A stretch of 61,665 nucleotides of DNA, filler included. It is 13 parts of 13 records of this genome, joined end to end, with 100 filler letters (N's around TTAATTAATTAA, not from the genome) between each part and the next. Parts side by side here need not be neighbours in the genome. Positions count along the whole stretch, not along the records: positions 51,714 to 56,310 come from SRR15195285_5860; 12 more parts are not named here. One strand, written 5' to 3'. Positions 4,486-56,468 of this stretch are shown here, one piece after another. The position numbers and the translations under genes are program-made. Within the stretch, counting starts at the first letter, position 1, and each line of letters begins with the position of its first letter. The notes under the pieces were generated by a model. It was not told the DNA's origin, made no database searches, and worked only from the letters and a program-made list of their open reading frames with translations.

Positions 4486-4700
4486 CTGCTCGCCAGACCC
4501 GAAGCGAACACGTGGCGAACACAGCACACGCACGCCCACAGCGAGAACCACCCGCCTCAGTCAGAGCTGCATGGACCGTGGCTCGGCACGAACAAGGCAA
4601 GGGGGTGCAGGAGGCGCGAATCGTTCGCGGTGTGGACACGTGGGGCCAGAGCCTCTCTTTCCAAACGGGCTGCGCCGTCTGCACTGCGGTTTGATGGCAC

Positions 4701-4880
4701 CGCAGCGACCACAGACAGGGGGAAGCTGGACTGCGGTGTGAGCGACGGGCGCGGCGGCGACGTGGAACAGCCCTGCGTTGGAACAGCTCTGCGGCCGCAG
4801 CGACCACAGACAGGGGAAAGCTGGACTGGGACCTGAGGGACGGGCGTGGCCGTGACGCGGAACAGCTCTGCGGCCGCAGC
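4701..4880. repeat. Minisatellite (~79-95 bp unit, two copies plus the start of a third), probably intronic, running into the contig end
   Basis: CGCAGCGACCACAGACAGGGG(G/A)AAGCTGGACTG...GGAACAGCTCTGCGGC starts at 4701 and 4796; CGCAGC restarts at 4875. Confidence 0.85.
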
Positions 4881-4980
4881 NNNNNNNNNNNNNNNNNNNN
4901 NNNNNNNNNNNNNNNNNNNNNNNNTTAATTAATTAANNNNNNNNNNNNNNNNNNNNNNNNNNNNNNNNNNNNNNNNNNNN
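4881..4980. other. Artificial contig spacer (44N-TTAATTAATTAA-44N). Identical spacers at 8542-8641, 13215-13314, 18051-18150, 24179-24278, 27700-27799, 31109-31208, 38824-38923, 42606-42705, 47919-48018, 51614-51713, 56311-56410
   Basis: Twelve identical 100-nt blocks with a six-frame stop linker are seen directly. They define 13 independent contigs. Confidence 0.99.
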
Positions 4981-8077: not shown

Positions 8078-8982
8078 TGGTGCAGCTGTGAACCAGTTCC
8101 AAGAGTTGCCAGTTGGCCGTTCCTTGCAATGCACGTGACTGGTCATATGCTCGGGAATCATATGGCGTCCCAACTGGGAATCAAAACCACTTGTGGGTGT
8201 GTGGGTATCGAGCATTCTGTCGTAACAAATGTCCCACCTCGGCAAAAGAACACAACCCTGCTCTCGACTCGAGAATAACCAGGTGGGTTTGTAGGGCCTT
8301 TCATCTCATGTACTAGTACAGTACCAGTACTATCAATAGTAGCAGGTCGCCCCGGCTCAAGCGCCAGAGGACTCCGTGAATCACCAAACACCGTTGCCCT
8401 CTTGATTCGATTGATCATCCGCCCGCCACGGCGATGCGATTTTCGTTTTTTAAAAAAAAATAGTACGGGCCGGTACAGTATCACAGGCTGGGTTCGAATC
8501 GTGTGGAGTATGCAACACTCACTGATAAATACCGTGCACCCNNNNNNNNNNNNNNNNNNNNNNNNNNNNNNNNNNNNNNNNNNNNTTAATTAATTAANNN
8601 NNNNNNNNNNNNNNNNNNNNNNNNNNNNNNNNNNNNNNNNNCTGGGCACTGCTGCAGTCTCATCGACACCGTACATGTGTTAACACATGTACTAGTAGCT
8701 CCCGGCGCGCACAATCTGGGCGCTGCTGCAGCGTGAGACTGGGAGCGCGCGCGTGAGTGTGACGGACTGCAGCATGCAGCGGAGACTCACGCACATCGCG
8801 CCGACGCGACACCGCTGGCACGCGTAATGGCGGCGCCGCCGGGCGGGGCTCCGTCGTGGGTATATATGTGCCGATCGGCGGCCTACTTGTAGGCATGATC
8901 CTGCGAACTGATCCGCTCCTCAGGAATCAGGCCAGCCGCGGTATTCCAATATCGGGCCTGGTGTGCTGAGAGTGTCGAAGCG

Positions 8983-13214: not shown

Positions 13215-13314
13215 NNNNNNNNNNNNNNNNNNNNNNNNNNNNNNNNNNNNNNNNNNNNTTAATTAATTAANNNNNNNNNNNNNNNNNNNNNNNNNNNNNN
13301 NNNNNNNNNNNNNN

Positions 13315-13350: not shown

Positions 13351-13386
13351 TCGACAGCGCGAGCGCCGAGCGATCCTCTCTAGCCT

Positions 13387-13557
13387 GTGAGCTCCCTGAG
13401 TCAACAGTCAACGGCCAGTGAGCTCACAGACCGTTGACTGCCAGTCTGTGAGCTCACAGGTCGCCCCGTGAGCTCACAGACCGTTGACAGCGACCCGTGA
13501 GCTCTCTGACCGGTGCGCGGATGGCCAGCGAGCTCACGGGTCGATCTGTGAGCTCAC
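13387..13557. repeat. Array of seven GTGAGCTCAC palindromes (four exact, three with 1 mismatch)
   Basis: Copies start at 13387, 13418, 13448, 13468, 13497, 13528 and 13548. Confidence 0.9.
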
Positions 13558-13875
13558 GAATCGACCCAGGAAGTACCCAGGTTGCGGGGGCTCTTGGGTC
13601 GCAACACATGCGCAAAACTGACCATGCGCACGCAGCCACGAGCTAGATCGAAAGATACGGCGCGCCGGATCGGCGTATCGCGCAGACGCGACGCGAGGGG
13701 TTCCATGCGTGACTCCGCTCCAGCCTCCACAGATCATCCGGCCTGATGGACACCCGGAGTACGGAGCAACTGATGATGAGGCCTCCACCTCGGGGCGGAC
13801 GGACGGAAGGGCGTGGACGTCCGAGGAGTTGAGGGACCTTGATTGCCCCACTGCATCATACTAGTACACGCGAAT

Positions 13876-17962: not shown

Positions 17963-18936
17963 CGTCCGAATACGGGATAGCAGACAACTTACACCCCCTC
18001 AGGGCCGAGGCGTCGGCGCGCGGGCGGGCGCCGCGCGCGCGGACGTGCGGNNNNNNNNNNNNNNNNNNNNNNNNNNNNNNNNNNNNNNNNNNNNTTAATT
18101 AATTAANNNNNNNNNNNNNNNNNNNNNNNNNNNNNNNNNNNNNNNNNNNNATCTCTGACTCACAGCGGTTGGATCGAGCGACGGCCGAAAACTCAATACT
18201 CTCCGACGCATAGACTGCTCCTCGCAGAACACGTGTTGCCACACGCTTGTCCGTCCTGACCCCTGAGTGGAGGCACGACGCACGACATGGAATTCTGCCA
18301 GACCTGCGCACAGAATGTGCTTCCCTCGAAAAAAGAGTGTGCCCGGCTTGAATTGAACAAGAATGACAAATCGCCTCGGAGCACCTAATTGCGTTCACAG
18401 ATGCTACTGGAAAACCGCTTGATATTGCGAAAGTGAGCTGGAGTCACAGCAGACCCAATTCACCGTTCCCCTAGCAAGCCGCACGACTTTTTTTTCTGTG
18501 TCACCTGAGTGGGGGACGCGAGGAGTTCGAGTTGAGGACAGAGGGACCAAGAAGCGACGCAACGCCCTTGGTACAATGTCGTAGTGAATTCGAGGAGGAT
18601 TTGAGCGATTTTCTGCTGGTCACTACTCGCTGTCTTCAATTCCGACCCACCGTCGTGAATCACACTCCGCGGAGTGAAAGTAACACCAATTTCAATACTG
18701 ATACGCAACAAAAACCAGCGAACTCGAGGTGGTCAGAGCGGTGCCGTGCAGTTATCTATGAGTTTTATATACTTCTGACGAATCCAACCCAGCCTGTGAC
18801 GGGTGAAGAAATACGAGAAACTAAACGCGGTGCGTCGGAGCAACAAATTGCGTGAGAGAACACAACCACGGTAAAGCCACTTGAGTGGCAGCGCTCTACC
18901 GTGCTTTTGGTTGGTGGGCTTGGTTGGTGGGGAGTG

Positions 18937-21900
18937 ATGGCGATGAGGGTGGCGATGCTCATGGCGATGAGTGGGGTGGGCAGTGCGATCCCGACGATCG
19001 GACGGCAGCTGCAGTCGGCGGCGCCGGACAAGTGCTCCGACCCGGAGTCGTTCCAGGGTGCGTGCCGATCGTGCTGCTTTGCTGCTGCTCCCGCCGCTCC
19101 CTCTCGCCGCTCTCGCCGCCGCTCTCGCCACCTCTCCCGCCACCGCTGCCGCCGCCGCTCCCGCCGCCGCCGCTGCCGCCGCCGCTGTTGGTCCGGTACA
19201 GCCGCTGGAATGGCGGTCACCGCCGCAGCTACAGCTGCGTGCAGCTGAGCCACCCGTGCCCCCGCCGTGTACCAAGCTACGGCGCTGCCATATTCGTCAA
19301 GCATAGTCGAGCGTGCGTAGCGGAGCGAGCTCTAGAACGTGCACGGAGCTAACTCCTGTTGTGGCATGCTGGCGTGGAACAGCCTGGACCGCGCTGGTCA
19401 ACTCGGCGTGCTGCACGAATGCTGCGTCCGCGTGCACCAATGGCTTGCCCACGTCCTGCGACACTGAGTGCGCCAACGTGCTCACTCCGTACAAGAGGTA
19501 CTGCAAGACCCAGCTTCAGGCAGCCAATATGATGCAAGCTGTCAACGCCGCTACCGGCACCTGCCCCCATGTCCCCAAGAACACGCGGGGCTGCAGCAAA
19601 GACATCCCCAGCGTCAGCAACGCCCATGCCGTTCAGTCTTGCGCTGGCGGCTCGGGCTTTTGGCCCGTCGGAACCGCGTGCTCTGTCTCCTGCGCTGCGG
19701 GTGGCGGACACCGCCGTGCCCAGGCAGGTGCCGCCATGTACATGTGCACCTCTGGTGGCGACTGGCTCTCCCCAGCACCGATCCACTGCGCCAGCGGACC
19801 CCCTCCGCCGCCCGGCAGGTCCACCGTGGGACGTTTCAGCGTGAGCACCCAGCCAATGACGATCACCGACGCCGTCACGTACTGTCGCAATCAGGGCGGC
19901 TCGCTGGCCTCCATCCACTCACCCGAGGAGCAAGACCAAGCCGTCGAGGTTTGTGGCTCCGTGCGGACTGACGCGACCACCGGCGCAACCATCAACGGTG
20001 ACCAGGCTACGCATGGCGGCTACGGCTGCTGGATTGGTTTCGAGGACTCTGCCTCTGACGGCGGGTTCGTGTGGACTGACGGCTCAAACGTTGATTACGT
20101 GAACTTCTTCCCTGGCGAACCGAACGGCAACCGATGCGCCACCGCTGGCCACCAGGGCAACTACTGCTCCGCCGTCTCGATTGACATGCGTGGATTCATG
20201 GGCGACCTTGGGATGGATCTGGACCCATCAGCAGGTGCCCGCGGCCGCAACGGCGCCTGGAACGACGACTCGCGAAACTCTGGCACCATGCTGTACCTAC
20301 TCCGACCAATAGGTCTCTTGATAATTTGGTCACTTTCTTCTGTCGTTTTCACTGTTTTCGCTGCTGCTGATCAAGATGTTTATTAATGGGAGCAGGTACC
20401 CGATTTGCCAGAGCACCATTCCGCAATCTGAAATGTCGCCGACCGCCCGGCACATGTGGGGCAACGGCGCGTCAACCTCGTTCAACATCCGCGTGTGCGT
20501 AGAGGCGGACGACTACCTTTTCTTCCAGGTAGGGAATCCTTCTTCCAGTCCACCTGTGCCCGGCTGCCTGCCCTATACAGCCCGGCTGCTTGATTGCCTG
20601 GCTGCCTGGCTGCCTGCCTCCTCCCTGTCACCCTGAAACGGGCAGTTTCTGCAATCTGAGCAATGGATTGTCCACAGGATGACCGCCTGTGGATGCAGTA
20701 CGGTGGCAACTGGGCGGCTGCGGGCACGGCGCGTGGCGATGAGACCCTCGGTGGCACTGCATGTGGTGACGAGTATATTGGAACCGCGTTCGTGAACGAG
20801 CAACCTTGGGACATCTCAGGGCTTGGCGCCTGCCACCCTGGCTCAACCTGCCCCGTCTCTAGCACATTCACTGACATGGGATTCGACGTACCGATGGGCT
20901 GCGCTTCCGTGCAAGTCTCCGCCGTTCTCAACTCTGCACAGGGAACCGTCCAGGTCCAGCAGCCGACCCGTGCGAACGGGTGGCGGGGTGAGATCCTTCT
21001 ACAAGACCATTACGATGGCGAGGTAGTGCAAGATGTAACTGTGACTGCCACTTGCCAGGGCACTGCTGCCACTCATCAGGCGCGGCTCAGCTGTGTCCAC
21101 AACGCTGGTACGGATTCCTGCAACATGGGCCGGATAGAGGTTTTCAACAATCACATCACACGGCCTGGCTCTCCTTCCGCTGGCGCGTGGGGCACTGTGT
21201 GCGGACACTACTTTTGGGACAATGACGAACTTGCCAACATCGTCTGCCGCCAGCAGGGATACGCATCTGGCCAGACCTACACGTTTGGCGCAACGAACTT
21301 TCTGCCAACGCTTCCGATCGTTGCCGGGTGGAGGCTCTGCCATGGTGGGGAGCGAGACGTTTTCGCTTGCGAGGCGAAGGATGTAACGACTGCAGGCGAC
21401 CGTACGCAGGTGCAGGACCCCATTTGCGCCAATGGCTGCGTGGGACCGGACGGTCTACAAGGCACGGCAGACGACACGATCGACGAGACCTGCATCCATG
21501 CAATCGATCAGGGTGCCATCTGCTACGCTGACTCATCTCCCTCACAGCTGTCAGTTCCGGTATGCCGCGGTTGTGGCAGCGGCGGCTGTGCTCTTGCCGG
21601 CAACACCGACCAAGAAGTGATCTTCTCCTGCATAGACTATTACACAACGCAGTGCCAGTACGACGTTACTGGTACTGCCCTGAACATTTACGAAGGCACC
21701 CACGGCAACGTGTGGGAAGGCACTGAAGGATCGGGTGCGGGCACCTACATGTGGGCGATGCGCCAGTTTGCTCGATGTGCTGCAGTTAGCCCAGAGCCAC
21801 AGGGCTACTGTCACGGCGCAATCAACTCGGCAGACAAGCTAGCCAACCACGACATCTGCACGGACGGCGCGACGACGAACATTGGCTTCCACATCCGCGT

Positions 21901-24178
21901 GCCTTTCAAGGTCAATACTCCGGGTGACTTCCAGTTCCGCCTTCACGCCGATTACGGTACTGGTTCTTTCATCGGTGTGGATGGCAGCGAGTACACGCCC
22001 GGCAACTTGTGGGGACACGTCAACGTGGACGGGACATCTTTGACTGCGGGAGACCACGAATTCGGAATTCTCGGCTTCGAGGACTGTTGCGATGGTCACG
22101 CCGAGCTCGAAGTGCACCTGCCATGCGATGATGAGAGTTCTCCGTGGCGTACCGTCGTCCACGGTGAGTCCGAGTGCCTAACCTGCGGTGGTGCAGAGTT
22201 GGCACCAGAGTGCTCTATGGACACAGAGTCAGCAGCTTGCTGCGGTCAGAGCGGCCTTCATATCCAGTGTGGCACACCTGCCGACGGCACTGCATGCGGT
22301 GCCGGCCAGTGGGCTGACCCGCTTGGACAGGTCAATCCGGATGATATAGTGGGCCGTTTCGTCGCCGTGCCGGAGTCCATGAACATCCAGGATGCAATCA
22401 CTTATTGCAACACGCACTTCGCAGGCATTGCTAGCATCCACAGCGCCTCAGAGCAGACTCATGCACAGGCAGCGTGCACCAAGTACGCTGACGGGTCGCA
22501 GACCCCGGACGAAGAAACAGGAGCAGTGGCTCCTTACGGCTGCTGGATCGGCTTTCAAGACGAGGCAAGCGAGGGAGGATTCGCCTGGATAGACGGCACA
22601 CCGGTTGACTACGTTGCCTGGGCCCCGGGCGAGCCGAACTCGTACAGCGGCAACGTGGAGAACGCGGTGGAAATGGACTTCCGGGACTCCATCAGCAGGA
22701 GCGGGTACTGGAACGACGCACCGAATGCTCCGGACTATGGCATGTTCCCGCTTTGCCAGACTCAGGCACCGCTCCCACCGGCTCCAGGCCCCCCGCCTGC
22801 ACCGATGGTGTGGGGGACCGGGCAGACCTCGTCCTTCCAGTTGGCGGTCTGCATTGATCACGTCGATACTCTGTTTTTCCAGGATGACCGGCTTTGGTTC
22901 CAATACAACGGACAATGGGCAGCGGCCGGAACACACGGGAGCTGCCCTGACCGGTACAGAGGAAAAGCATATATCAACAATCAGCCGTGGGACATCAGCG
23001 ATCTGAGCCACTGCCATAGCGGTGTTGAGTGCCCGGTCTCGAAAACCTTTACGGATAGGCAGTTCGAGGTGCCGATGGGCTGCGGCAGCATCGACATGCA
23101 GGTCACCGTCAATTCGGGGCGTGGAACGCAGCCGCAGACGATTGCGCCGTCGCAAGGGAATAACTTCCGCGGCGAGGTAATTCTTAGCGATGATGGATTT
23201 GGAGGCGCTGACGTATACGACATCACTGTGACGCTCACCTGCCAGGGGACAGCCCCCAACCAATACGCCCGGTTGTCGTGCACTCACGCCACAGGCACGG
23301 AAGAATGCCACATGGGACGCATGGAGGTCTTCAATCATGGCGCAAGCCATGGTGACCACGAGTCTACTGGTGTTGGCGCCTGGGGCACTGTCTGCGGACA
23401 CTATACCTGGGATAACAACAATGCTGCAGACATCGTGTGCAGGCAGCTTGGCTTCGCTAGTGGGGAGGGCTACACCTTCGGAGCGACCAACCTGCTCCCG
23501 ACCCTCCCAGTTGTAGCGGGTTTCATGGCTTGTGAAGGAACAGAGGCCGACACGTTCCACTGCCCTCGCGGCGACTCTCGCCCTGGCCGCCCGGCGGACC
23601 CGTACTGCGCTATCGGTTGCCTCGGACCTGACGGAATCTACGGCACACTAGACGACACCATAGACTCCACGTGCACACACGCAATTGATCAGGGCGCCAT
23701 CTGTATGCGCGCGGACTCGATGCAGCAGCTGAACCCGGCTGTCCCCACCTGCCGAGCAGTCGGTGGGGGCGGAGTTGGCGACTCTGGAAACGCGCAGCAG
23801 CCCGCAGTTTTCGGTTGCTTTGAGTACTACACGACGAATTGCGTCTACGATGTCACCCACGCTGGTGTAACGGCTGGCCACGGCTCTGTCGGCTCATACG
23901 TGGACGCCATGCGTGCCTTCGCCACCTGCGCTGCGGTCGTGCCCGAAGTTGCAGGTTATTGCCATGGCGCTCTCCAGGACGGCTCGATGCTGTCCAACCA
24001 CATGGTGTGCATGTCCGGTCTGGCTGACGACCCCACAACTGAGGACGTCGACGAATCCCAGGGCGCAACTACGGACATAGGGTTCCACATCAGGATTCCT
24101 TTCCGCGTGAACGATGACGGGCTTTACACGTTCCGGTACCACATGGATATGGGCTTGGTGCGCATTCAATCTCCCCCG
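18937..24178 (+). CDS. Large secreted/surface protein, 3' partial: Cys-rich N-terminus, then two tandem units of C-type lectin - beta domain - SRCR - PA14/CCXG-like domain
   Basis: CTLD motifs LASIHS, CWIGF, F.W.DG, PGEPN and WND occur twice. SRCR motifs GR.EVF, WGTVCGH..WDN..A.IVCRQ.G and C.H..DQGAIC occur twice. GFEDCCDG is at 22073-22096. ORFs 19313-20386 and 20663-24226 are joined by introns. Confidence 0.88.
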
Positions 24179-24279
24179 NNNNNNNNNNNNNNNNNNNNNN
24201 NNNNNNNNNNNNNNNNNNNNNNTTAATTAATTAANNNNNNNNNNNNNNNNNNNNNNNNNNNNNNNNNNNNNNNNNNNNA

Positions 24280-27316: not shown

Positions 27317-28079
27317 CGTATGCGGTGCCCTGCATGCATGCATGTACAGGCACATGCACGCTCCTGTTTACTGATCAAGAGTCCTACACGTGATGGCCGC
27401 GTGCTCCGTCGGTGATCGCTGCACTAGAGTACCGTACGGCTCTACTAGATCTAGTACTATTCATAGTACATTAATGGATCTAGCTAGTACTACCATCAAT
27501 AGTAGCACAGCTGCTGCACATACGAGTACGCTGTACTATTATGGTACTGATACTGCCGCATACGTGATAGTATGCCCTATAGTATCGACATGTCAACCGT
27601 ACAGTATCAAAGTATAGTACCATTATAGGAAGTTCCTACCTACGTTGTTTGTACAATAAAGCGCCCGGATGCATTAAAAGTCAAGTGACAAGAAACACAN
27701 NNNNNNNNNNNNNNNNNNNNNNNNNNNNNNNNNNNNNNNNNNNTTAATTAATTAANNNNNNNNNNNNNNNNNNNNNNNNNNNNNNNNNNNNNNNNNNNNC
27801 GAAACGGTGTGTAGCTGCTTTGTACACAGCTGTTATTAAAGCCTTTCGAGTTTTGCGAGAGTCGAACTAGGGGGACCGTTTGTACTTGTAATTTTTTAAA
27901 AAACTGTAATCTGTAATCTCACCGACCTAGGAATCGCATTGTACATGTAGGCGCCCGCGCGCGCCCCGCCGCGGGCGCGCGCGTATAAATGGCGCGCGCG
28001 TATCGCGCCGTACGTACTAGATCTAGTACCGCACCATGCGTGCGCGTACGATTGCGCGGTATGCCGTAGCGATACGGGG

Positions 28080-30975: not shown

Positions 30976-31284
30976 CACGCCGAAGTCGTAGTGCCCAGAC
31001 GTGGTCGGCGGAAGGGTGCATTCCGCGTTTGACAAAAACGAACTTGTGTACAATTCGAATAGCCCAAAGATCGCCCAATGATGGACCCATGTCTTGGTTC
31101 CCACGCGCNNNNNNNNNNNNNNNNNNNNNNNNNNNNNNNNNNNNNNNNNNNNTTAATTAATTAANNNNNNNNNNNNNNNNNNNNNNNNNNNNNNNNNNNN
31201 NNNNNNNNCCCCCCCCCCCCCCCCCCCCGCGCGCCCCCTGCCCTCCTCGTTTTTTGCGGCCTTACTCCAGAAGCCCATCGCAAG

Positions 31285-38823: not shown

Positions 38824-39473
38824 NNNNNNNNNNNNNNNNNNNNNNNNNNNNNNNNNNNNNNNNNNNNTTAATTAATTAANNNNNNNNNNNNNNNNNNNNN
38901 NNNNNNNNNNNNNNNNNNNNNNNCAACATAATCAGCCCCCCTGATAACAAACGGTTCCACAACTGACTCCTGGAAACGAAAGTCTGGACCGTCGTCTCTG
39001 GACTCGCGTCGATTGACCCTTCATCGCCGAGGTTGCACACCGACATCCGTGACATCCGGATCGCCGTGCCTGGACCACAGGATCCATGACAAGATCCTCG
39101 ACGCATGCAGCTTCATACTCATCCGCGAAGAGATCTAGTTTCTATAATAGTAGGGATCCCTACCTTGTATTGATAAATGTTACTATCCGCGTACAGTGTA
39201 CCTACCAGAGGTACAGCGCGTACCTCCCGACGCGCCGGATTCGCGAGCGCGGGGCGTCGTCGCGAGCGCGCCCATGCATGCTATGATACTCTAGTCTAGT
39301 GTGTACACACGTAATACAAATGGTATACGTAATAGGCATGTTAATGTGCACGCGCACGACGCACGCGCGCGCCGCGGCGAACGCTCGCGAGCACGCATCC
39401 CGTCAGGCCTCAGGCGTCCGTCGCACGTTTCGTTCGCCCGGTACCGGTGAGCAGGCACGGCGGCACAACAGCG

Positions 39474-41835: not shown

Positions 41836-42705
41836 TGTATGGGCTGGACTCAACAATTGAACGATTGGCCCAAAGCATACTCAAAGAGCAGGTCGTAAAT
41901 GATGGGAGGTGATCCCAGGAGAATGATGTTGCTGCTGGTGCTGCCAGGGTCATTGTAGCTATTCGTGTGATCATGACAACGTATCGCACTTTCGGCAACA
42001 TGAGTATCAGGCAATTGCACGGTACAAACAGCGTAAATCAGACGAGCGAAGGAGCCGAAATCGAAAAAAAATTCTTATGGTAAAGATGGAGATTTGGGTT
42101 GGTGTGTGAGACAGGGTCAAATGTAGATGTATGTGTGGTATCCCTCTCTACTACTCACTCTCTACCCACCCAGAACTTCCTCCTCTACTAAAAGCAATGT
42201 CATCAGTTTTGGGCCCCTCTGAGTTCATAGGTCGTTGGGTACAGCTTGGGCAACATGTGCATCCAGAACCTCCGCCCACCGGCACCCCACGTCATTCGTC
42301 ATTGAAATTCGGATTGGAGTCCCTGGCAATCACATCGTAATGGACGTCGACGTAGGCAGTAATGATCTCTACGGAGGCATAATCTACAGGAATGCTTTGG
42401 CCTTTCAAAGGCCGCTCAGCGCCACTCCACTCGCACAAGCACTGCGCGCGTACAGATAAGAGGATCGTCGCGAGCTCAGGCTGAGCAAAAAGAAGGTAGC
42501 AGTCATGAAGCGCGTGCGGAGCGCAGTGTGATAGCGGCAAACCAACGCTTCACCAGCAGGTATCATTCTCACCTCCCCACCTAGACGCGCATTGTCGTCG
42601 CCGAANNNNNNNNNNNNNNNNNNNNNNNNNNNNNNNNNNNNNNNNNNNNTTAATTAATTAANNNNNNNNNNNNNNNNNNNNNNNNNNNNNNNNNNNNNNN
42701 NNNNN

Positions 42706-42992: not shown

Positions 42993-45900
42993 ATGCCGAA
43001 GGGTATGCCGCGCACGACCTCCGATTCGGGTGGCCACCACGGACGGCGCGGCTCCATCGATTCGGGTGGCAGTCGCAGGAAGAAGCGGAGCGTGAACCGG
43101 ACGATGACGGCGATCGGTATGGCCGATCCGGAAGAGCAGAAGTCGTCGATAGATACACCCGCTCCTGCTCCGGAGCCCGAGCCGGCTGCTACGGCTGCTG
43201 CGGATGCTGCGGATGCTGCGGATGATCAGGTGCGGGCGGGCGACACCCTTTCCCCTGATCGGCTGTGTGTGTGATAGTCATTGCCAGCGTGTGGCTACTC
43301 TGGTTGCAGGAGGGTGGCGAGCCGAAAGCGGCACCCAAGGCGATCAAGAAAAACCGGTCCGAGACGATCCAGGTCGGCATCCGGTGTCGTCCACTGATCG
43401 GCCGCGACGCCGGCCAGGTCCGCTGTTTCGACACGGCCAAACGCTCGCTGCAGGCTAACGACAACGCACCGATCAAGGAAGGCAAGGCAGCCAAGGACAA
43501 GCTGCCCTGGGTTTTTGACAACGTATTCGACGAACAATCGACGGTCCACGATATTCATCGCGACCTGACGACGGAGGTGATTGACTCCGTAATGGAGGGC
43601 TACCATGGCACTATCTTCGCCTACGGGCAGACCGGTTCCGGTAAGACGTACACGATGGTAGGCGACCGCGCGCAGGAGGTGCCCGGTGTCATGTCGCTTG
43701 GAACCAAGCAAATGTTCGAGTATATCAAAGACGATGGCTACCGCGACTACATGGTGCGCGTGTCGTATATGGAGGTCTACATGGAGCGCGTGCGAGACCT
43801 GCTCAACCCGGAGGCTATTGGGGAGGAGCTAAAGGTGCGCCAAGATGCAGGTGGAAAGGGCTTCTTTGTAGAGTGCCGAGAAGTTGTGGTGACGAACGAG
43901 GAGCAGATCTATGCTATGCTTGACGCGGTGCGCATGTCCGCGCCTGCTTGGTGGCAATCAGTCGCTTTCGACCTGTGTGTACGCGCTTGTCTCACGTTGC
44001 GCTCTGTGTTCGTGCTCACTTTGGGGGCAGGGAAACGAGCTGCGCACAGTCGGTGCGACTGATATGAACGCTCAGAGTAGCCGGTCGCACGCCATTTTCC
44101 GCCTCGTGGTCGAGAGTACGGTCAAGAAGGATGTGGAGCAAGTCGGCTCGGCAGAGGACAACGCCTTCCGTCAGTCATACCTGAACCTGGTCGACTTAGC
44201 AGGCTCCGAGCGGACAAAGGACACCGGTGCCTCAGGCCAGAGGCTGAAGGAGGCCGGCACGATCAACCTGTCACTGTCCTGCCTGTCAAATATTATCCGT
44301 GCGCTAAGTGAGAAGGGCAAGAAGAAAGGCAAGGTGCATCTGCCGTTTCGCGACTCCAAGCTTACGCAGATTCTTCAGCCTTCGTTGGGTGGCAACAGTC
44401 GCACAGCTTTCATCTGCACTGTGACGCTGGCTGCCAAATTTTTTGAGGACACCAAGTCCACATTGGCTTTTGCCGACCGTGCAAAGAAGGTTACAAACAG
44501 CCCTAAGAAGAACATCGTGGTGAATCAAAAGGCCATGCTAGCTGAAGCGCAGGACGAAATTGAGCAGCTCAAACAGGCTCTGAAAATGGCAGCTGGCGGT
44601 GACCTCCCGGCCGGCTTCGGTGGAGGCGGTGGCGGTGGCGAGTCTGAAGAGTCATTGAAGCAGAAGCAGGACATGGAAGCCAAGGTGAAGTTCCTTGAGA
44701 GTATGCTTGTCGGCACTGGAGCAGCGCAAGACCTTGAGACAATGCACCAGATCTGGACGCCCGAACTGGGCAGCTCCGCAATGGACGGTTCATCGGTGGC
44801 CAAAATGCTCGCGGAGGCGGAGAAGAAACGTGTTGAGGAGTGGCGTGCCGGGCAAAAACAGGAGATCGAGGAAGTGTGGCAGAAGGTAGATGAGGATGGG
44901 TCCGGTGCGCTAGACCCTGAGGAGATGCAGCATATGTTTAGTGCGATGGGCCAAAATGACATTGACGTGGAAGCTGCGATCAAAGAAATCGACGAAGACG
45001 GTGACGGTGAGGTCGACTTTGAAGAGTTTTTTGAGTGGTGGTGCACACGTTCCGTTGCTGATCGTGATCGCCTGAAGGGCAAGCAACATAAGGTGCCACA
45101 GGCGCGGATCCGCAAGCTCAAGATTCTCCTAAGAATTGGTGCGGGAATGGCAGGCTCTGTGCAGAAGAATGAGGCGCGCAATCGTACCGTCGGCTTCGCG
45201 CAGATAGCGCAGTCGATGAAGCTGGGCGGTGCCGGTAGCGCTGGTGCCGGCGGTGCAGCGATGAGCGCTTCTGCCAAACAAAAGTTCAACGAGCTGCGGC
45301 TAGAGAAGGAAAGGCTGCAGGTTCTATCGAACAGCCAGGCTGCAAAGCTTGAAGAGGTCGAGACTGCAGCACTGTTGGCGCAGCAGGAAGTGCAGCGCCA
45401 GCAGGAGGAGCTTCAGGCCACGCGCACCACGATGCAAACGACGATTGCAGAGCTTGAGGCAACGCTTCAGGCGACAAATCAAAAGCTGAGCAAGCGTGAC
45501 GAGCAGGTCAGCAGGTCACATTCGGACTTGGCTGTTTCGAAGGCAGAGGTTGAAGAGCTAAAATTGAGATTGGAGCAGGCAGAAACGAAGTCGGGCCTTG
45601 ACAAGCTGCGAGCCGACGAGGAGATTGCTGAGCTCCGAACTGGTCCGCAAATCCACACCTTGAATTTGAACTGACAACCGTGTCCTGAAGAATGAGAAGC
45701 TGTCTTCTGATGCACAGAGTGGTTCCTCTGACCGTTTCATTTTGTCTCCGCAGAGGTGGATGATAGGGAACGGACGATCCGGATGATTTCGGTGAAGTGT
45801 CAGCGCATGGAGTCGGAGGTGTCCGAGCTACAGGCTGCTGTGGTTGACTTGGCAGTTGATGAGCGCGTCATCGAGTCAGAGAAAGCTAGGACGGAGATGG

Positions 45901-47855: not shown

Positions 47856-48105
47856 CGCTGCCGCCAACCCGTTCGCCCTCTCACCTCTCGCGCCCGCGCT
47901 GTCTCCCTACTTCTCCACNNNNNNNNNNNNNNNNNNNNNNNNNNNNNNNNNNNNNNNNNNNNTTAATTAATTAANNNNNNNNNNNNNNNNNNNNNNNNNN
48001 NNNNNNNNNNNNNNNNNNCAGCAGCAGCAGCAGCAGCAGCAGCAGTGTGTGAGAACCATGAACGGCGCGCATCAGACGAGCGTTGAACCATCAGCGGCTG
48101 TGTAG

Positions 48106-51510: not shown

Positions 51511-51790
51511 ACGCGCGGGTATCGTACGCGTATCTACACCGCCGGTCGCGCGCGCGCTGCTTGTCGTGCACAGTAAGTACGAGTTTTGGGTCCTGAATCA
51601 GACCTCGAGAGGTNNNNNNNNNNNNNNNNNNNNNNNNNNNNNNNNNNNNNNNNNNNNTTAATTAATTAANNNNNNNNNNNNNNNNNNNNNNNNNNNNNNN
51701 NNNNNNNNNNNNNCCATCCCCCATTACTTGACTACAGGGTGCGGCGCGCGCTGCCGCCGGGGGCCCACGCAGAGGAAGCTCAGCACTGAG

Positions 51791-54583
51791 ATGGCGTATG
51801 TGGCTGCGCAGCTGCTGCTGGCCGCCGTCATCGGCAGCTCATCCAGCGACACCAGTGGTCCCACACCTGCTTGCAAGGGCCAGCGGACAGACGGTGCCTC
51901 ACGACGTGCCTGCACTGATACGATCGTGTCGAACGTCACCACTGCGGGAGACTGCGAGGCGCTCTGCTGCGCAGATAGCGTGGCACACCCGGTACCCTAC
52001 CCAGGCGCGGTGCCGGTTGGGTGTGTCGCCTGGTACCACAGCGAGTACTCCCAGTGTTTCATGTGCAACGGGCAACGGGGTGAACAGACACGGTAAAGCC
52101 GGCCCGTGGCCACCGGTCGCAAACGAAACAGACCCAAAGTGCGTGCCGAGGAAATCGTGGAAGAACCCGGGGACGGCTAATATCACTTGCATGACGGGCA
52201 CGATTACTCCCACTCCGGCACCACTCCCACCGAAACCGCCTGCAGTTTTCAAAGGGTTCATCGGGACGGAGGCCCATCCGGAGTACGTGGACGGCGCTGT
52301 AGGAATGCGCGCGCCAACTCGCGTCGGCAACAGCAGCGAGCCCCTGAACGCTACCACCGAGCTCACGGACAAGGGGTGGCCTAAGATGGACTGTGACATT
52401 ACGATCTTCGACCATCGACCAACGCACGCTTGGGCTCCACCGATGGACGACCCAGAGCACCGACAGGTCGACCTCTCTGGCACCTGGACCCTCAGTAAGA
52501 AATCAGCTGCCGTTGCTGTTGCCGTTGCTGCTGCCGTTGTTGCTGAGACTAATTCTTGCTGAAATGTTTGGGCGTGTCGCGTCACCATCACACAGCGCTA
52601 CGAGGCAATGCCAATGTAACGCTTATCGATCCGATTGGGATTTCACTCGGTGCTCCAAGCTACAGTAAAGAGACGAACACGCTGACACAATCAATTATCT
52701 TCGCCAAGGGTGGCTATCCGAAAGTGCAGAACCTCTTGGCACTAAGTTTTACCGACACGCGCGCGACGCCAGGCTCCGACGCTGGGTCGGGGTTTTCTGA
52801 GTTGAAGATCTACCGGCCTGGTTACGCGCCAGAGCTGCAGGACGAGGCGCCACCGCAGCTGTTCACGGATAATATGATGGCTTTGCTGAAGATTTTTGAC
52901 CACACGCGCTGGATGGGTACAACAGGACAAGAGTCTTATAACTTTCGTTGTGGCCCGCCGAATGCCGGGGCATGCTCCGCTGTCGCTTGGGACGAGAGGA
53001 TAATCCCAGACAGAGCGTTTCAGTCACCTACGTGGTGTACTGGTGAGTGCGGCGCCATAACACCATGGGAACATGTGCTGCTGGCTGCGAACGAGATCGG
53101 CTCAGATGTTTGGATCAACGTGCCCATCACAGCGACGTCCCCGAGCGGTGAGACTTGGATCGCAGTACACTGCCGACTTTGCATGATCGTTTGGTCGGAC
53201 GCTCGATAGTTTCTTGCATTGCTTTGATAGCTGACGGTGCTTGCATGAGTGCAGTCTGTCGGACAGATCCAAACGGTGACCATACTACGTGTCTCCCAGA
53301 GGCACCAGAGGAAACTTATGAATACCAGCTGGCAAAACTCTTCCGTGATGGCAACGAGTTCACTGGAAATGTTGGGTTGGACCCGAAGCTCAAGATTTAT
53401 GTCGAGCATTCCAACGAGGTATGGAATTATGGGTTCAGACAGCACGCCATTAATCAGAACATTGCGGACTTTGAAGTTTCGAATGGTTCCCTCTACCCAT
53501 CGATGAAGAAATCGAACTTGGCCTCCGCTGTCCTCGGGCGGGAGGATATCGATGCTCGGCAGCACTGCACAAATACAAGCGGTGTAGTCAACCCAAAGAC
53601 GGGTGAGTCCACACTCGTCGGTAGTGCTTGCTGGTCGAGGCGGCGACACGCGCGGAGGGTGTATGAAATCAGCCGAACCTTCCAATCTGTCTTTGGAGAG
53701 GGTAGCCTCGCAACACATAGCAATCCGAACGGTCGAGTTCGGATGGTATATGCTTCATGGGGGCTGGAGAACATGTTCCAGAATTACTACAACGACACGT
53801 TGTCGTGGCTTGAAGCGGAGTATGGCCCCGTGAGCGATTACCTTTATGCGATCAGCTATGCACAGTATTTCGCACCGTCTGGCTGCAATGATGGTCACTG
53901 CGAGGGTGGTGGCAGCGGGTTCAACTACTCGACCGCAAGCCTGCCTCAGGTCATCGATGGTTTCCACAACGGCACTAAGCTTGGCATCCCAGTGACCATG
54001 CAATTCGTCAAGTTCGCCAAGTCACTGCAGGTCAAGACTATGAGCTACGAAGGCGGTCCAGGCTATCATGTAGGGGCAGAGAAACCTGGTTCAAGCGGCT
54101 TGAACCTGATGATCGAGGGATCACGACTGCCCGGGATGAAAGCTGTGGTGATAGATCACGTCGATACCTGCTGGCAATACGGCTGGGACTCGTGAGCATT
54201 GAGCAGCCGCTGCATCCTCTGTCTCTGCTTGACCCTGTAATCTATGGTTTACTCATCGAAAGCACTGGCCTGTATCTCAAATTGGTTTAGGTACAACTAC
54301 TTTGCTGTAGTTAGCCCAGCATCTGAATACGGTTGCTTTGGGGCCACCGAGTCGTGAGTATTGAGCAAATGCTGCATCGTCTCTCTTTGCTTGACCCTGT
54401 ACTCTAAGGTTTACTCATCGAAAGAACATACTGGCCTGTATCTCAAATTGGTTTAGGTATGGGAACATCAACCCTGGGCCTCCAAAGCTGCAAGCGCTGT
54501 ACGAGCTGACGGGCCATTCTCCCGATGAGCTGGCGCAGTGGGCGGCAGATCGCGCGCGACCTCGTGCTAGGTCCTCGTACTAA
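51791..54583 (+). CDS. Secreted protein with a PAN-like N-terminal module and a bacterial-type clan GH-A-like catalytic domain; 4 introns; apparent frameshift at 52065-52078
   Basis: Signal peptide; PWEHVLLAANEIGSDVWINVP, YVEHSNEVWN, MSYEGG; exons joined by GT-AG introns including 54192-54290 and 54354-54456; TAA at 54581-54583. Confidence 0.8.
54192..54456 (+). mobile_element. Two near-identical spliceosomal introns (54192-54290, 54354-54456), introner-like
   Basis: 99 and 103 nt, both GTGAG..TTTAG, ~10 substitutions plus one 4-nt indel, separated by a 63-nt exon. Mobility is inferred. Confidence 0.6.
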
Positions 54584-54715
54584 TGGGCGTTTCAATCTCA
54601 TGTTCACCTGCCCAGCTCCAGGTCTTAGATCATAGAACCCTATTGGTGCCAGCGTGGATAGGCAGGTGCATACACTTTTGTGTTTGGTGTTTGAAGATGT
54701 CATTGTTCCAAAAAG

Positions 54716-56027: not shown

Positions 56028-56468
56028 CGGCCTTCGGGGGGCATCGCGGCGCGCTGGCCCCGCCGGCGCCGCCGGCATCCGCGCGATCAGGGCATTATGT
56101 ACTATTATATATAGCTACGTAGACGCACGCACGCACGCAGGCAGCGAGGCCAGATACAGTACTCTCGAGAGCTAGAGTAGCCGCAGTGCCCAGGTTGACA
56201 CGGCATGAGTCTCGCGCTGCTGATTCGTCGGATCCTCGTCACTCATGTTGCCCCGTTGGGAGTATGAAAAACTCACTGACAACTGCAGTGCACCCCTCTG
56301 ACCGCCTCGANNNNNNNNNNNNNNNNNNNNNNNNNNNNNNNNNNNNNNNNNNNNTTAATTAATTAANNNNNNNNNNNNNNNNNNNNNNNNNNNNNNNNNN
56401 NNNNNNNNNNGGGGTGGTGCGGCGTGGTGTTTTTTTGGTTTTTTGAGGGAGCAGCGTAATAGGCTGGG

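Follow-up and report, generated by a model that had tools for sequence, protein, structure and literature searches.

Within a 61,665-base stretch of DNA (hereafter, the window), which consists of 13 contigs (~3.3-7.6 kb each) strung together by 12 identical linkers and is not one piece of a chromosome, a single gene carries two spliceosomal introns, A and B, that are close copies of one another and are separated by an exon of 63 nt. The gene (51791..54583, plus strand, as are all of its features given below) lies on the contig at 51714..56310, the limits of which were set from N runs and linker sequence. We consider it likely that the pair arose by local copying of an intron within the same gene, via a DNA or an RNA route and without duplication of an exon; i.e., the second intron would be a local copy of the first, placed 63 coding bases away at a look-alike junction, GA(C/G)TC|GTA. 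New spliceosomal introns with a nameable source are rare, and this pair is an unusually clean one: both positions are new and the middle exon is ancient, splicing is confirmed, and the recipient site is a unique look-alike of the donor junction.

Likeness of the paired introns

Intron A (54192..54290; 99 nt; after amino acid 713.67 of the spliced product) and intron B (54354..54456; 103 nt; after amino acid 734.67) are phase 2 GT..AG introns that both run from GTGAG to TTTAG, at exactly the coordinates proposed in the initial annotation of the window. The end-to-end identity of ~88% claimed there agrees with our global alignment, in which 90 of 103 columns match (87.4%) and the remainder are 9 substitutions and 4 gap columns; BLAST identity was 86.4%. 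As controls, the other five intron pairs of the host gene reached 54.5-57.4%, in keeping with the earlier remark that its remaining introns are unrelated, and 500 shuffles of B gave a mean of 51.2 +/- 2.2 with a maximum of 58.8%. The A/B pair is also the top self-match of the entire window. Its members are direct repeats with starts 162-166 nt apart, and their longest common exact run spans 30 nt (54264-54293 and 54430-54459), of which a 27-nt piece occurs twice in the window versus zero occurrences expected from shuffles.

This likeness ends near the splice sites, as had been noted at the outset. Compared in register, the exon flanks of A and B agree at 12/30 and 10/30 bases, the agreement being confined to GA(C/G)TC upstream and GTA downstream. 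Divergence between the copies is itself uneven: all 9 substitutions fall within the first 54 of the 99 aligned positions, and the last 45 nt differ by one 4-nt indel only (P ~0.004 if changes were evenly spread). The clean 3' halves could be due to constraint on splicing signals at the 3' end, or a conversion tract could have arisen later. Gene conversion between two unrelated introns was considered separately as the origin of the likeness and was rejected, as conversion needs prior similarity.

Splicing and integrity of the assembly

Four public runs were compared with positions 53700-54700 at a likeness of at least 80%, all contigs being read: two DNA runs, X1 (possibly the source sample) and X3 (from another study), and two RNA runs, X16 and X17 (the latter oligo-dT). 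A 257-nt RNA contig from X17 maps to 54101-54191, 54291-54353, and 54457-54557, skipping 99 and 103 nt at two joints (54191>54291 and 54353>54457), with GT..AG bounds in each case. Introns A and B are working spliceosomal introns. The reading frame requires the removal of both, and a predicted protein from another contig (P0132, 99% identical) stops at ...GWDS, exactly where donor A makes a stop. No exon-skipped form (54191>54457) is listed, but with just one RNA contig at hand its absence is uninformative, and no weight attaches to gaps in RNA cover along the stretch in X16 and X17 either.

The window derives from a fragmented short-contig assembly, in which two haplotypes or a collapsed repeat could in principle have been stitched together in tandem; we nonetheless hold such an artefact to be the least probable of all the explanations weighed here. 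DNA contigs of two studies span both copies, with 53700-54700 being covered in one piece by a 4227-nt contig from X1 (1 difference) and by a 1525-nt contig from X3 (13 differences). Each intron carries a single change private to the latter (54200 in A, 54406 in B). Moreover, the RNA contig holds the 63-nt exon together with both joints, and the frame needs both removals. The initial annotation had advised confirming the two splices by RNA and excluding misassembly, and on both points the outcome supports the introns as drawn.

An ancient exon between two new introns

The exon between the twins (54291..54353; 21 aa) encodes part of a conserved protein core. Over both intron sites, the spliced protein is colinear and gapless with 10 homologues, i.e., 7 eukaryotic (3 of these being transcriptome open reading frames) and 3 bacterial, and the exon aligns without gaps to 7 related loci as well; in homologue P0002, residues 720 and 721 flank the site of intron B. 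Judged by these alignments, the 63-nt exon is ancient and not a duplicate. At position 54308 within it, the window has T (Val), whereas the X1 and X3 DNA contigs and the X17 RNA contig have C (Ala), with Ala also present in several homologues; we take the T for a minor variant or an erroneous base.

The direct orientation of the copies, 162-166 nt from start to start, is what a tandem segmental duplication of exon plus intron would produce, and an intron might alternatively arise from a duplicated exon by the AGGT-duplication model. Gapless colinearity with the homologues excludes a tandem duplication of exon plus intron, however, with no additional 21 aa relative to the 10 proteins, and the in-register comparison of the flanks shows no second copy of the 63-nt exon to its left or right. 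With respect to the AGGT model, the introns resemble no exon in the window, their matches elsewhere being no longer than 12-14 nt. Taken together, this class of explanation is highly improbable. The earlier statement that the middle exon is not a copy of its neighbors is hence upheld. The short element AATACGGYTG, found at 54176-54185 and again at 54326-54335, is spaced by 150 nt as opposed to 162 for the repeat and is hence out of register; it encodes Y-G motifs that are conserved among homologues.

A scan of metagenome contigs provided 80 related loci (358,308 bases), of which 12 that were eukaryote-like by identity or by split matches were examined for introns, the remaining 68 lying at 24-38% identity. 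Both sites are covered by seven of the 12 (L001, L003, L005, L008, L019, L056, and L067), and none of the seven is interrupted at either site. As frame-changing breaks occur elsewhere in five of these seven, those five loci are genomic DNA with introns of their own. Both sites are likewise read through in protein P0133, encoded on a contig of 14,977 nt. Since the sites are intron-free in all seven covering loci, A and B are lineage-specific, with both introns having been gained in this lineage only; the orthologue comparison that had been called for originally returned absence at both sites throughout. Self-comparison of the 12 eukaryote-like loci revealed no twin introns in the relatives, and the A/B intron sequence yielded nothing in the 80 fetched loci but one 13-nt match.

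Intron positions differ in practically every relative (L003, L004, L006, L007, L008, L019, L056, L067, and L072). One intron is common to L003 and L067 at a point where the window has none, and L003 lacks introns 2 and 3 of the window. From these comparisons, the host gene family looks like one with free intron gain and loss, i.e., a hotspot of intron turnover.

The event may be placed relative to population divergence. Introns A and B differ at 9 of 99 aligned sites (Jukes-Cantor distance 0.097). The X3 population differs from that of the window at 13 of 1001 bases, including 2 of 202 intron bases and 7 of the 117 that follow the stop codon. By this measure, the intron duplication is several times older than the split of the two populations, and the presence of both introns in both populations fits a duplication older than that split. 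The "recent intron gain" of the initial annotation accordingly stands as to gain, while "recent" needs qualifying in light of the 9/99 divergence and the twins in both populations.

Two repeats were also seen in the relatives themselves. The contig ends of L003 (1-158 and 4588-4745) share 158 nt at 99.4% identity, which suggests a circular molecule or an assembly artefact, and L067 contains a 62-nt direct repeat (1068-1128 and 1185-1246; 82%) around the gene end.

A look-alike junction at the second site

Exon 4 ends in GACTC (54187..54191) before intron A, splitting the codon TC|G, and the 63-nt exon then starts with GTA(C); at the second site, the last exon (54457..54583) starts with GTA(T). 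The common context GA(C/G)TC|GTA with a split TC|G codon, to which the initial annotation drew attention, is thus present at both sites, and they are alike beyond chance. Along the spliced coding sequence, site B is the sole position out of 2322 that matches the site A junction, GACTC|GTA, at a minimum of 7 of 8 bases, a figure to be read with the knowledge that the 5+3-base junction window was picked after looking and that 3 of 2321 positions match equally well with 5+4 bases and 30 of 2318 with 6+6. The likeness is tight and confined to positions -5 to +3. Across the entire window, matches of at least 7/8 bases to GACTC|GTA number 33 among 120,866 8-mers (~2.7 per 10,000). At such a rate, look-alikes should number in the thousands per transcriptome, yet only the site 63 nt away is occupied, which suggests a process restricted to cis.

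In the closest relatives, site A reads GAC GAG TAC (L003) or AAC GAG TAC (L067), and site B reads GAG ACG TAC (L003) or GAA ACG TAC (L067). Part of the junction likeness thus pre-existed, with the split codon TC|G being common to both sites only in this lineage. The copying of the intron may have carried some flanking bases with it, which would account for this common TC|G, or the codon may already have been there. What site B shares with the presumed template is TC upstream (4 of 5 bases in GA.TC) and GTA downstream, a pattern that also fits target recognition.

A search for further copies

The initial annotation had raised the prospect of a mobile, dispersed intron-generating element and had asked for a count of further copies; none came to light beyond A and B. 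Matches to the introns elsewhere in the 61,665-base window are no longer than 12-14 nt. Across all contigs of X1, X3, X16, and X17, searched at a likeness of at least 80%, no third copy was detected and no contig lies on intron sequence alone; exon matches as short as 33-50 nt (~80%) were detected. The spanning contigs are also unbroken at the introns. A working rule for introner families asks for at least four similar introns in unrelated genes of one genome (PMC9860276; here and below, published systems are given as described in the consulted sections of the cited papers); the data searched hold two copies in one gene.

Other marks of an introner were looked for at the loci themselves. As stated at the outset, no terminal inverted repeats are evident, with none of 7 nt or longer when each intron was searched together with 10 nt of its flanks. 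Repetition in the flanks is limited to the GT with which both the intron and the next exon open; this GT is identical at both sites and so indistinguishable from target preference. Fold z-scores for A and B (+1.48 and +1.45) indicate structures weaker than those of shuffled sequences, and the lengths of 99 and 103 nt resemble those of the ordinary introns 2 and 3 (101 and 107 nt). Rfam returned no matches on 54000-54700 up to E = 1, and so no intronic snoRNA or other known RNA. An ab initio scan of the window for introns (GTRAG..YAG, 70-139 nt, with open-frame flanks) produced 79 overlapping candidates, too noisy to define the usual exon context; A and B were not among them, owing to the shortness of the 63-nt exon.

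It therefore seems unlikely that A and B belong to a dispersed introner or introner-like family that prefers GA(S)TC|GTA(Y) and has more copies elsewhere in the genome. Such a family would account for two new introns with one sequence and one target context; the host is a marine protist, and introners are enriched in aquatic lineages (17.0% versus 2.6% of species; PMC9860276), with the searches having covered the window and metagenome contigs as opposed to a whole genome. Against it stand the lack of a third copy in the window, in two DNA metagenomes containing the organism, and in two RNA runs, the contigs that continue through the introns, and the absence of inverted repeats together with the weak folds and ordinary lengths. 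Members of a single burst should resemble one another roughly as closely as A and B do, and would thus have been detectable. Unoccupied GASTCGTAY sites in the window number 0 versus 1.23 expected, a comparison of little power.

Less probable again is a pair of independent insertions from a third source, lost or unseen, possibly kept alike afterward by gene conversion. The crowding of all 9 substitutions into the first 54 of 99 positions could be read as the trace of a recent conversion tract, but the clean 3' half is equally explained by branch-site and acceptor constraint, and the X3 polymorphisms at 54200 and 54406 also lie in the 5' parts. Furthermore, no source sequence was found in the window, the run contigs, the fetched loci, or viral or prokaryote contigs. 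In the latter two sets, an exact scan for a 26-nt piece of the shared intron gave 0 matches; the host is not expected in either, so this carries no weight.

Local copying, which the initial annotation had offered as an alternative to its mobile element, is the reading that stands. That annotation had also specified what would overturn its reading of the twins as intron gain by copying, i.e., an absence of other genomic copies combined with an exon that arose by tandem duplication. Only the first half of this was borne out: no other copies were found in the data searched, but the exon is ancient instead of duplicated.

Possible routes of copying

For local copying at the DNA level, the following sequence of steps is conceivable. 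A break would occur at the second site, followed by priming on the TC microhomology just upstream of the first intron; extension would then proceed through the intron, with re-annealing on the GTA microhomology. The event would be kept by selection, as the insert is a complete spliceable intron. We tentatively favor this microhomology-templated repair over reverse splicing, which we rank second, because such repair events copy nearby sequence and only the site 63 nt away is occupied; the preference falls somewhat short of an even bet.

In the RNA route, the excised intron would be reverse-spliced into its own gene's transcript at a mimic of the junction, reverse-transcribed, and recombined into the gene. 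This is a serious alternative, if a doubtful one. The copied segment has the exact limits of the intron, first G to last G, as would be natural under reverse splicing; the target is the unique donor-junction look-alike in the mRNA (1 of 2322 positions); and this is the classical proposal for similar introns (PMC3443670, PMC4122922, and PMC3514964). However, a recombination tract would be required that leaves introns 2 and 3 in place along with intron A, at a distance of only 63 nt. Other transcripts show no sign of spread despite look-alikes at ~2.7 per 10,000 positions, and according to the review sections consulted (PMC3443670), an in vivo demonstration of reverse splicing at a new site is lacking. 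Slightly more doubtful still is a junction-guided form of spliceosomal "retrohoming", in which the excised intron would be reverse-spliced into the nearby RNA site that best mimics its ligated-exon junction, in this case the one look-alike with 7 of 8 matches in the mRNA. If true, it would constitute natural evidence for sequence-guided, cis-acting reverse splicing of a spliceosomal intron.

Several points weigh against local copying as reconstructed here. (i) RNA support comes from one contig at a depth of 3.6, in one of the two RNA runs. (ii) An RNA-library contig from X16 (54416-54601; depth 12.1) still includes the final 41 nt of intron B before entering the last exon; this could be a retained intron, unspliced pre-mRNA, or DNA carry-over. 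(iii) The nearest relatives covering the sites (L067 and L003) are only ~70% identical in this segment, so the gains are loosely dated, and (iv) none of the relatives examined carries one intron of the pair without the other. (v) The split codon TC|G at both sites, versus GAG (site A) and ACG (site B) in the closest relatives, is left unexplained by a simple microhomology model, and the choice of junction window after looking, given above, belongs here also. (vi) The copy count rests on the window and on metagenome contigs at k-mer depths of 2.8 and 5.84, possibly from a partial genome. Finally, (vii) the available data fit the DNA and RNA routes alike.

Comparison with known cases of intron gain

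The closest parallel is found in fungi, where Collemare et al. 2013 (PMC3609843) described same-gene duplications of introns, with 82 members in 24 fungi; about half of these lack duplication of the flanking exons and were read as transpositions within the same transcript. The class as a whole is sparse and stands apart from the high-copy introner-like elements. As with A and B, similar introns are confined to one gene and flanking exons are not duplicated. The fungal copies are near-identical, while those presented here, from an uncultured marine protist, are 87% identical; for A and B, moreover, the relatives are shown to lack introns at both positions, and the junctions are shown to be unique look-alikes.

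Introners, known from Micromonas, Aureococcus, fungi, and many aquatic protists, likewise consist of canonical introns of one sequence (PMC9860276 and PMC3609843). They number at least four in unrelated genes, many with target-site duplications or terminal inverted repeats; in contrast, A and B are two introns seen in one gene, with no such marks. Fungal introner-like elements are longer than ordinary introns and have stable folds (PMC3609843), neither of which applies to A and B. In transposition by reverse splicing, as proposed for Mycosphaerella and Oikopleura (PMC3443670 and PMC4122922), a new intron also matches an existing one with exact boundaries; the published cases are mostly between unrelated genes, whereas A and B lie 63 nt apart in one gene. 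A 2012 review counted 14 unambiguous intron transposition events (PMC3443670).

Intron gain through break repair would resemble the present case in its short matching bases on either side of the new intron and, under the DNA route, in being a local, DNA-level event; there, the insert is usually of unknown origin, while here it would be templated from the neighboring intron. An intron of Drosophila Xdh is said to derive by duplication of an existing intron. By that account, a new intron came from a pre-existing one of the same gene; in our case, neither twin is old.

Introns A and B are a fresh example of a known, rare type of event and reveal no new mechanism or mobile element. The pair points to copying via short homology or junction recognition, as opposed to random insertion, and shows that genes outside fungi and animals also gain introns by local copying, here in a family with shifting intron positions.

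The host gene and its product

The coding sequence, drawn by a homologue-guided splice search, starts with ATG at 51791 and yields a spliced product of 776 aa; the stop codon called in the initial annotation required a small correction, with TAA lying at 54581-54583. The first junction falls within 52072-52150, where homologue matches overlap and switch frame. The best GT..AG candidate there is only 52 nt long, compared to ~100 nt for the other four introns of the gene, and the discontinuity could be a short intron or an assembly frameshift error. Intron 2 (52495..52595; 101 nt; phase 1) is unrelated to A (56.2% identity) and B (54.5%), as is intron 3 (53148..53254; 107 nt; phase 1), at 56.1% and 54.6%, respectively.

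The host protein family has no sequence match in Pfam, NCBIfam, or PDB, and proteins P0001-P0011 show it to be common to marine protists and bacteria. With an AlphaFold model of homologue P0001 (mean pLDDT 67.8) as the query, Foldseek matched TIM-barrel glycoside hydrolases of families 10, 51, 5, 39, and 79, with E-values down to 5.5e-07 and low TM-scores of 0.20-0.30 on the query. The predicted structure comprises a TIM barrel of the clan GH-A type and an N-terminal beta domain. Going by this model, the host product, from a family without annotation, is a probable glycoside-hydrolase-like protein of the (beta/alpha)8 type, probably secreted, and we assign nothing firmer.

Source of the DNA and other features of the window

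The stretch was found in marine and seawater metagenomes of 12 studies. A protein atlas supplied neither a taxon nor a name of any use. On another contig, an exon encoding kinesin and EF-hand regions (43893-45671) matches P0012 at 100% identity and P0013-P0016, from other assemblies, at 85-93%; it also has 88% identity with a EukProt protein whose name starts with COSAG06. Naming of this style is used for Picozoa single-cell co-assemblies (PMC8599508, in the sections consulted), and the 88% match, which carries it, hints at a picozoan host organism and at close relatives of it among public data. A literature search pairing "introner" with "Picozoa" returned no paper with both.

In each linker, a 12-base spacer that carries stop codons in all six frames sits between two blocks of 44 N. 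The 12 linkers lie at 4881-4980, 8542-8641, 13215-13314, 18051-18150, 24179-24278, 27700-27799, 31109-31208, 38824-38923, 42606-42705, 47919-48018, 51614-51713, and 56311-56410, and because they fall between contigs, genes on either side of a linker are not genomic neighbors.

Elsewhere in the window, a G+C-rich direct repeat (4700-4777 and 4795-4872; 86% identity; 95-nt period) reaches a contig end, and a low-complexity, palindrome-like stretch (13384-13566) with a 70-74% match to its own reverse complement lies just after a contig start. An uninterrupted 1173-aa frame (20660-24178) encodes scavenger-receptor cysteine-rich and C-type lectin domains and contains an internal repeat (21181-21315 versus 23374-23508) at 70%.

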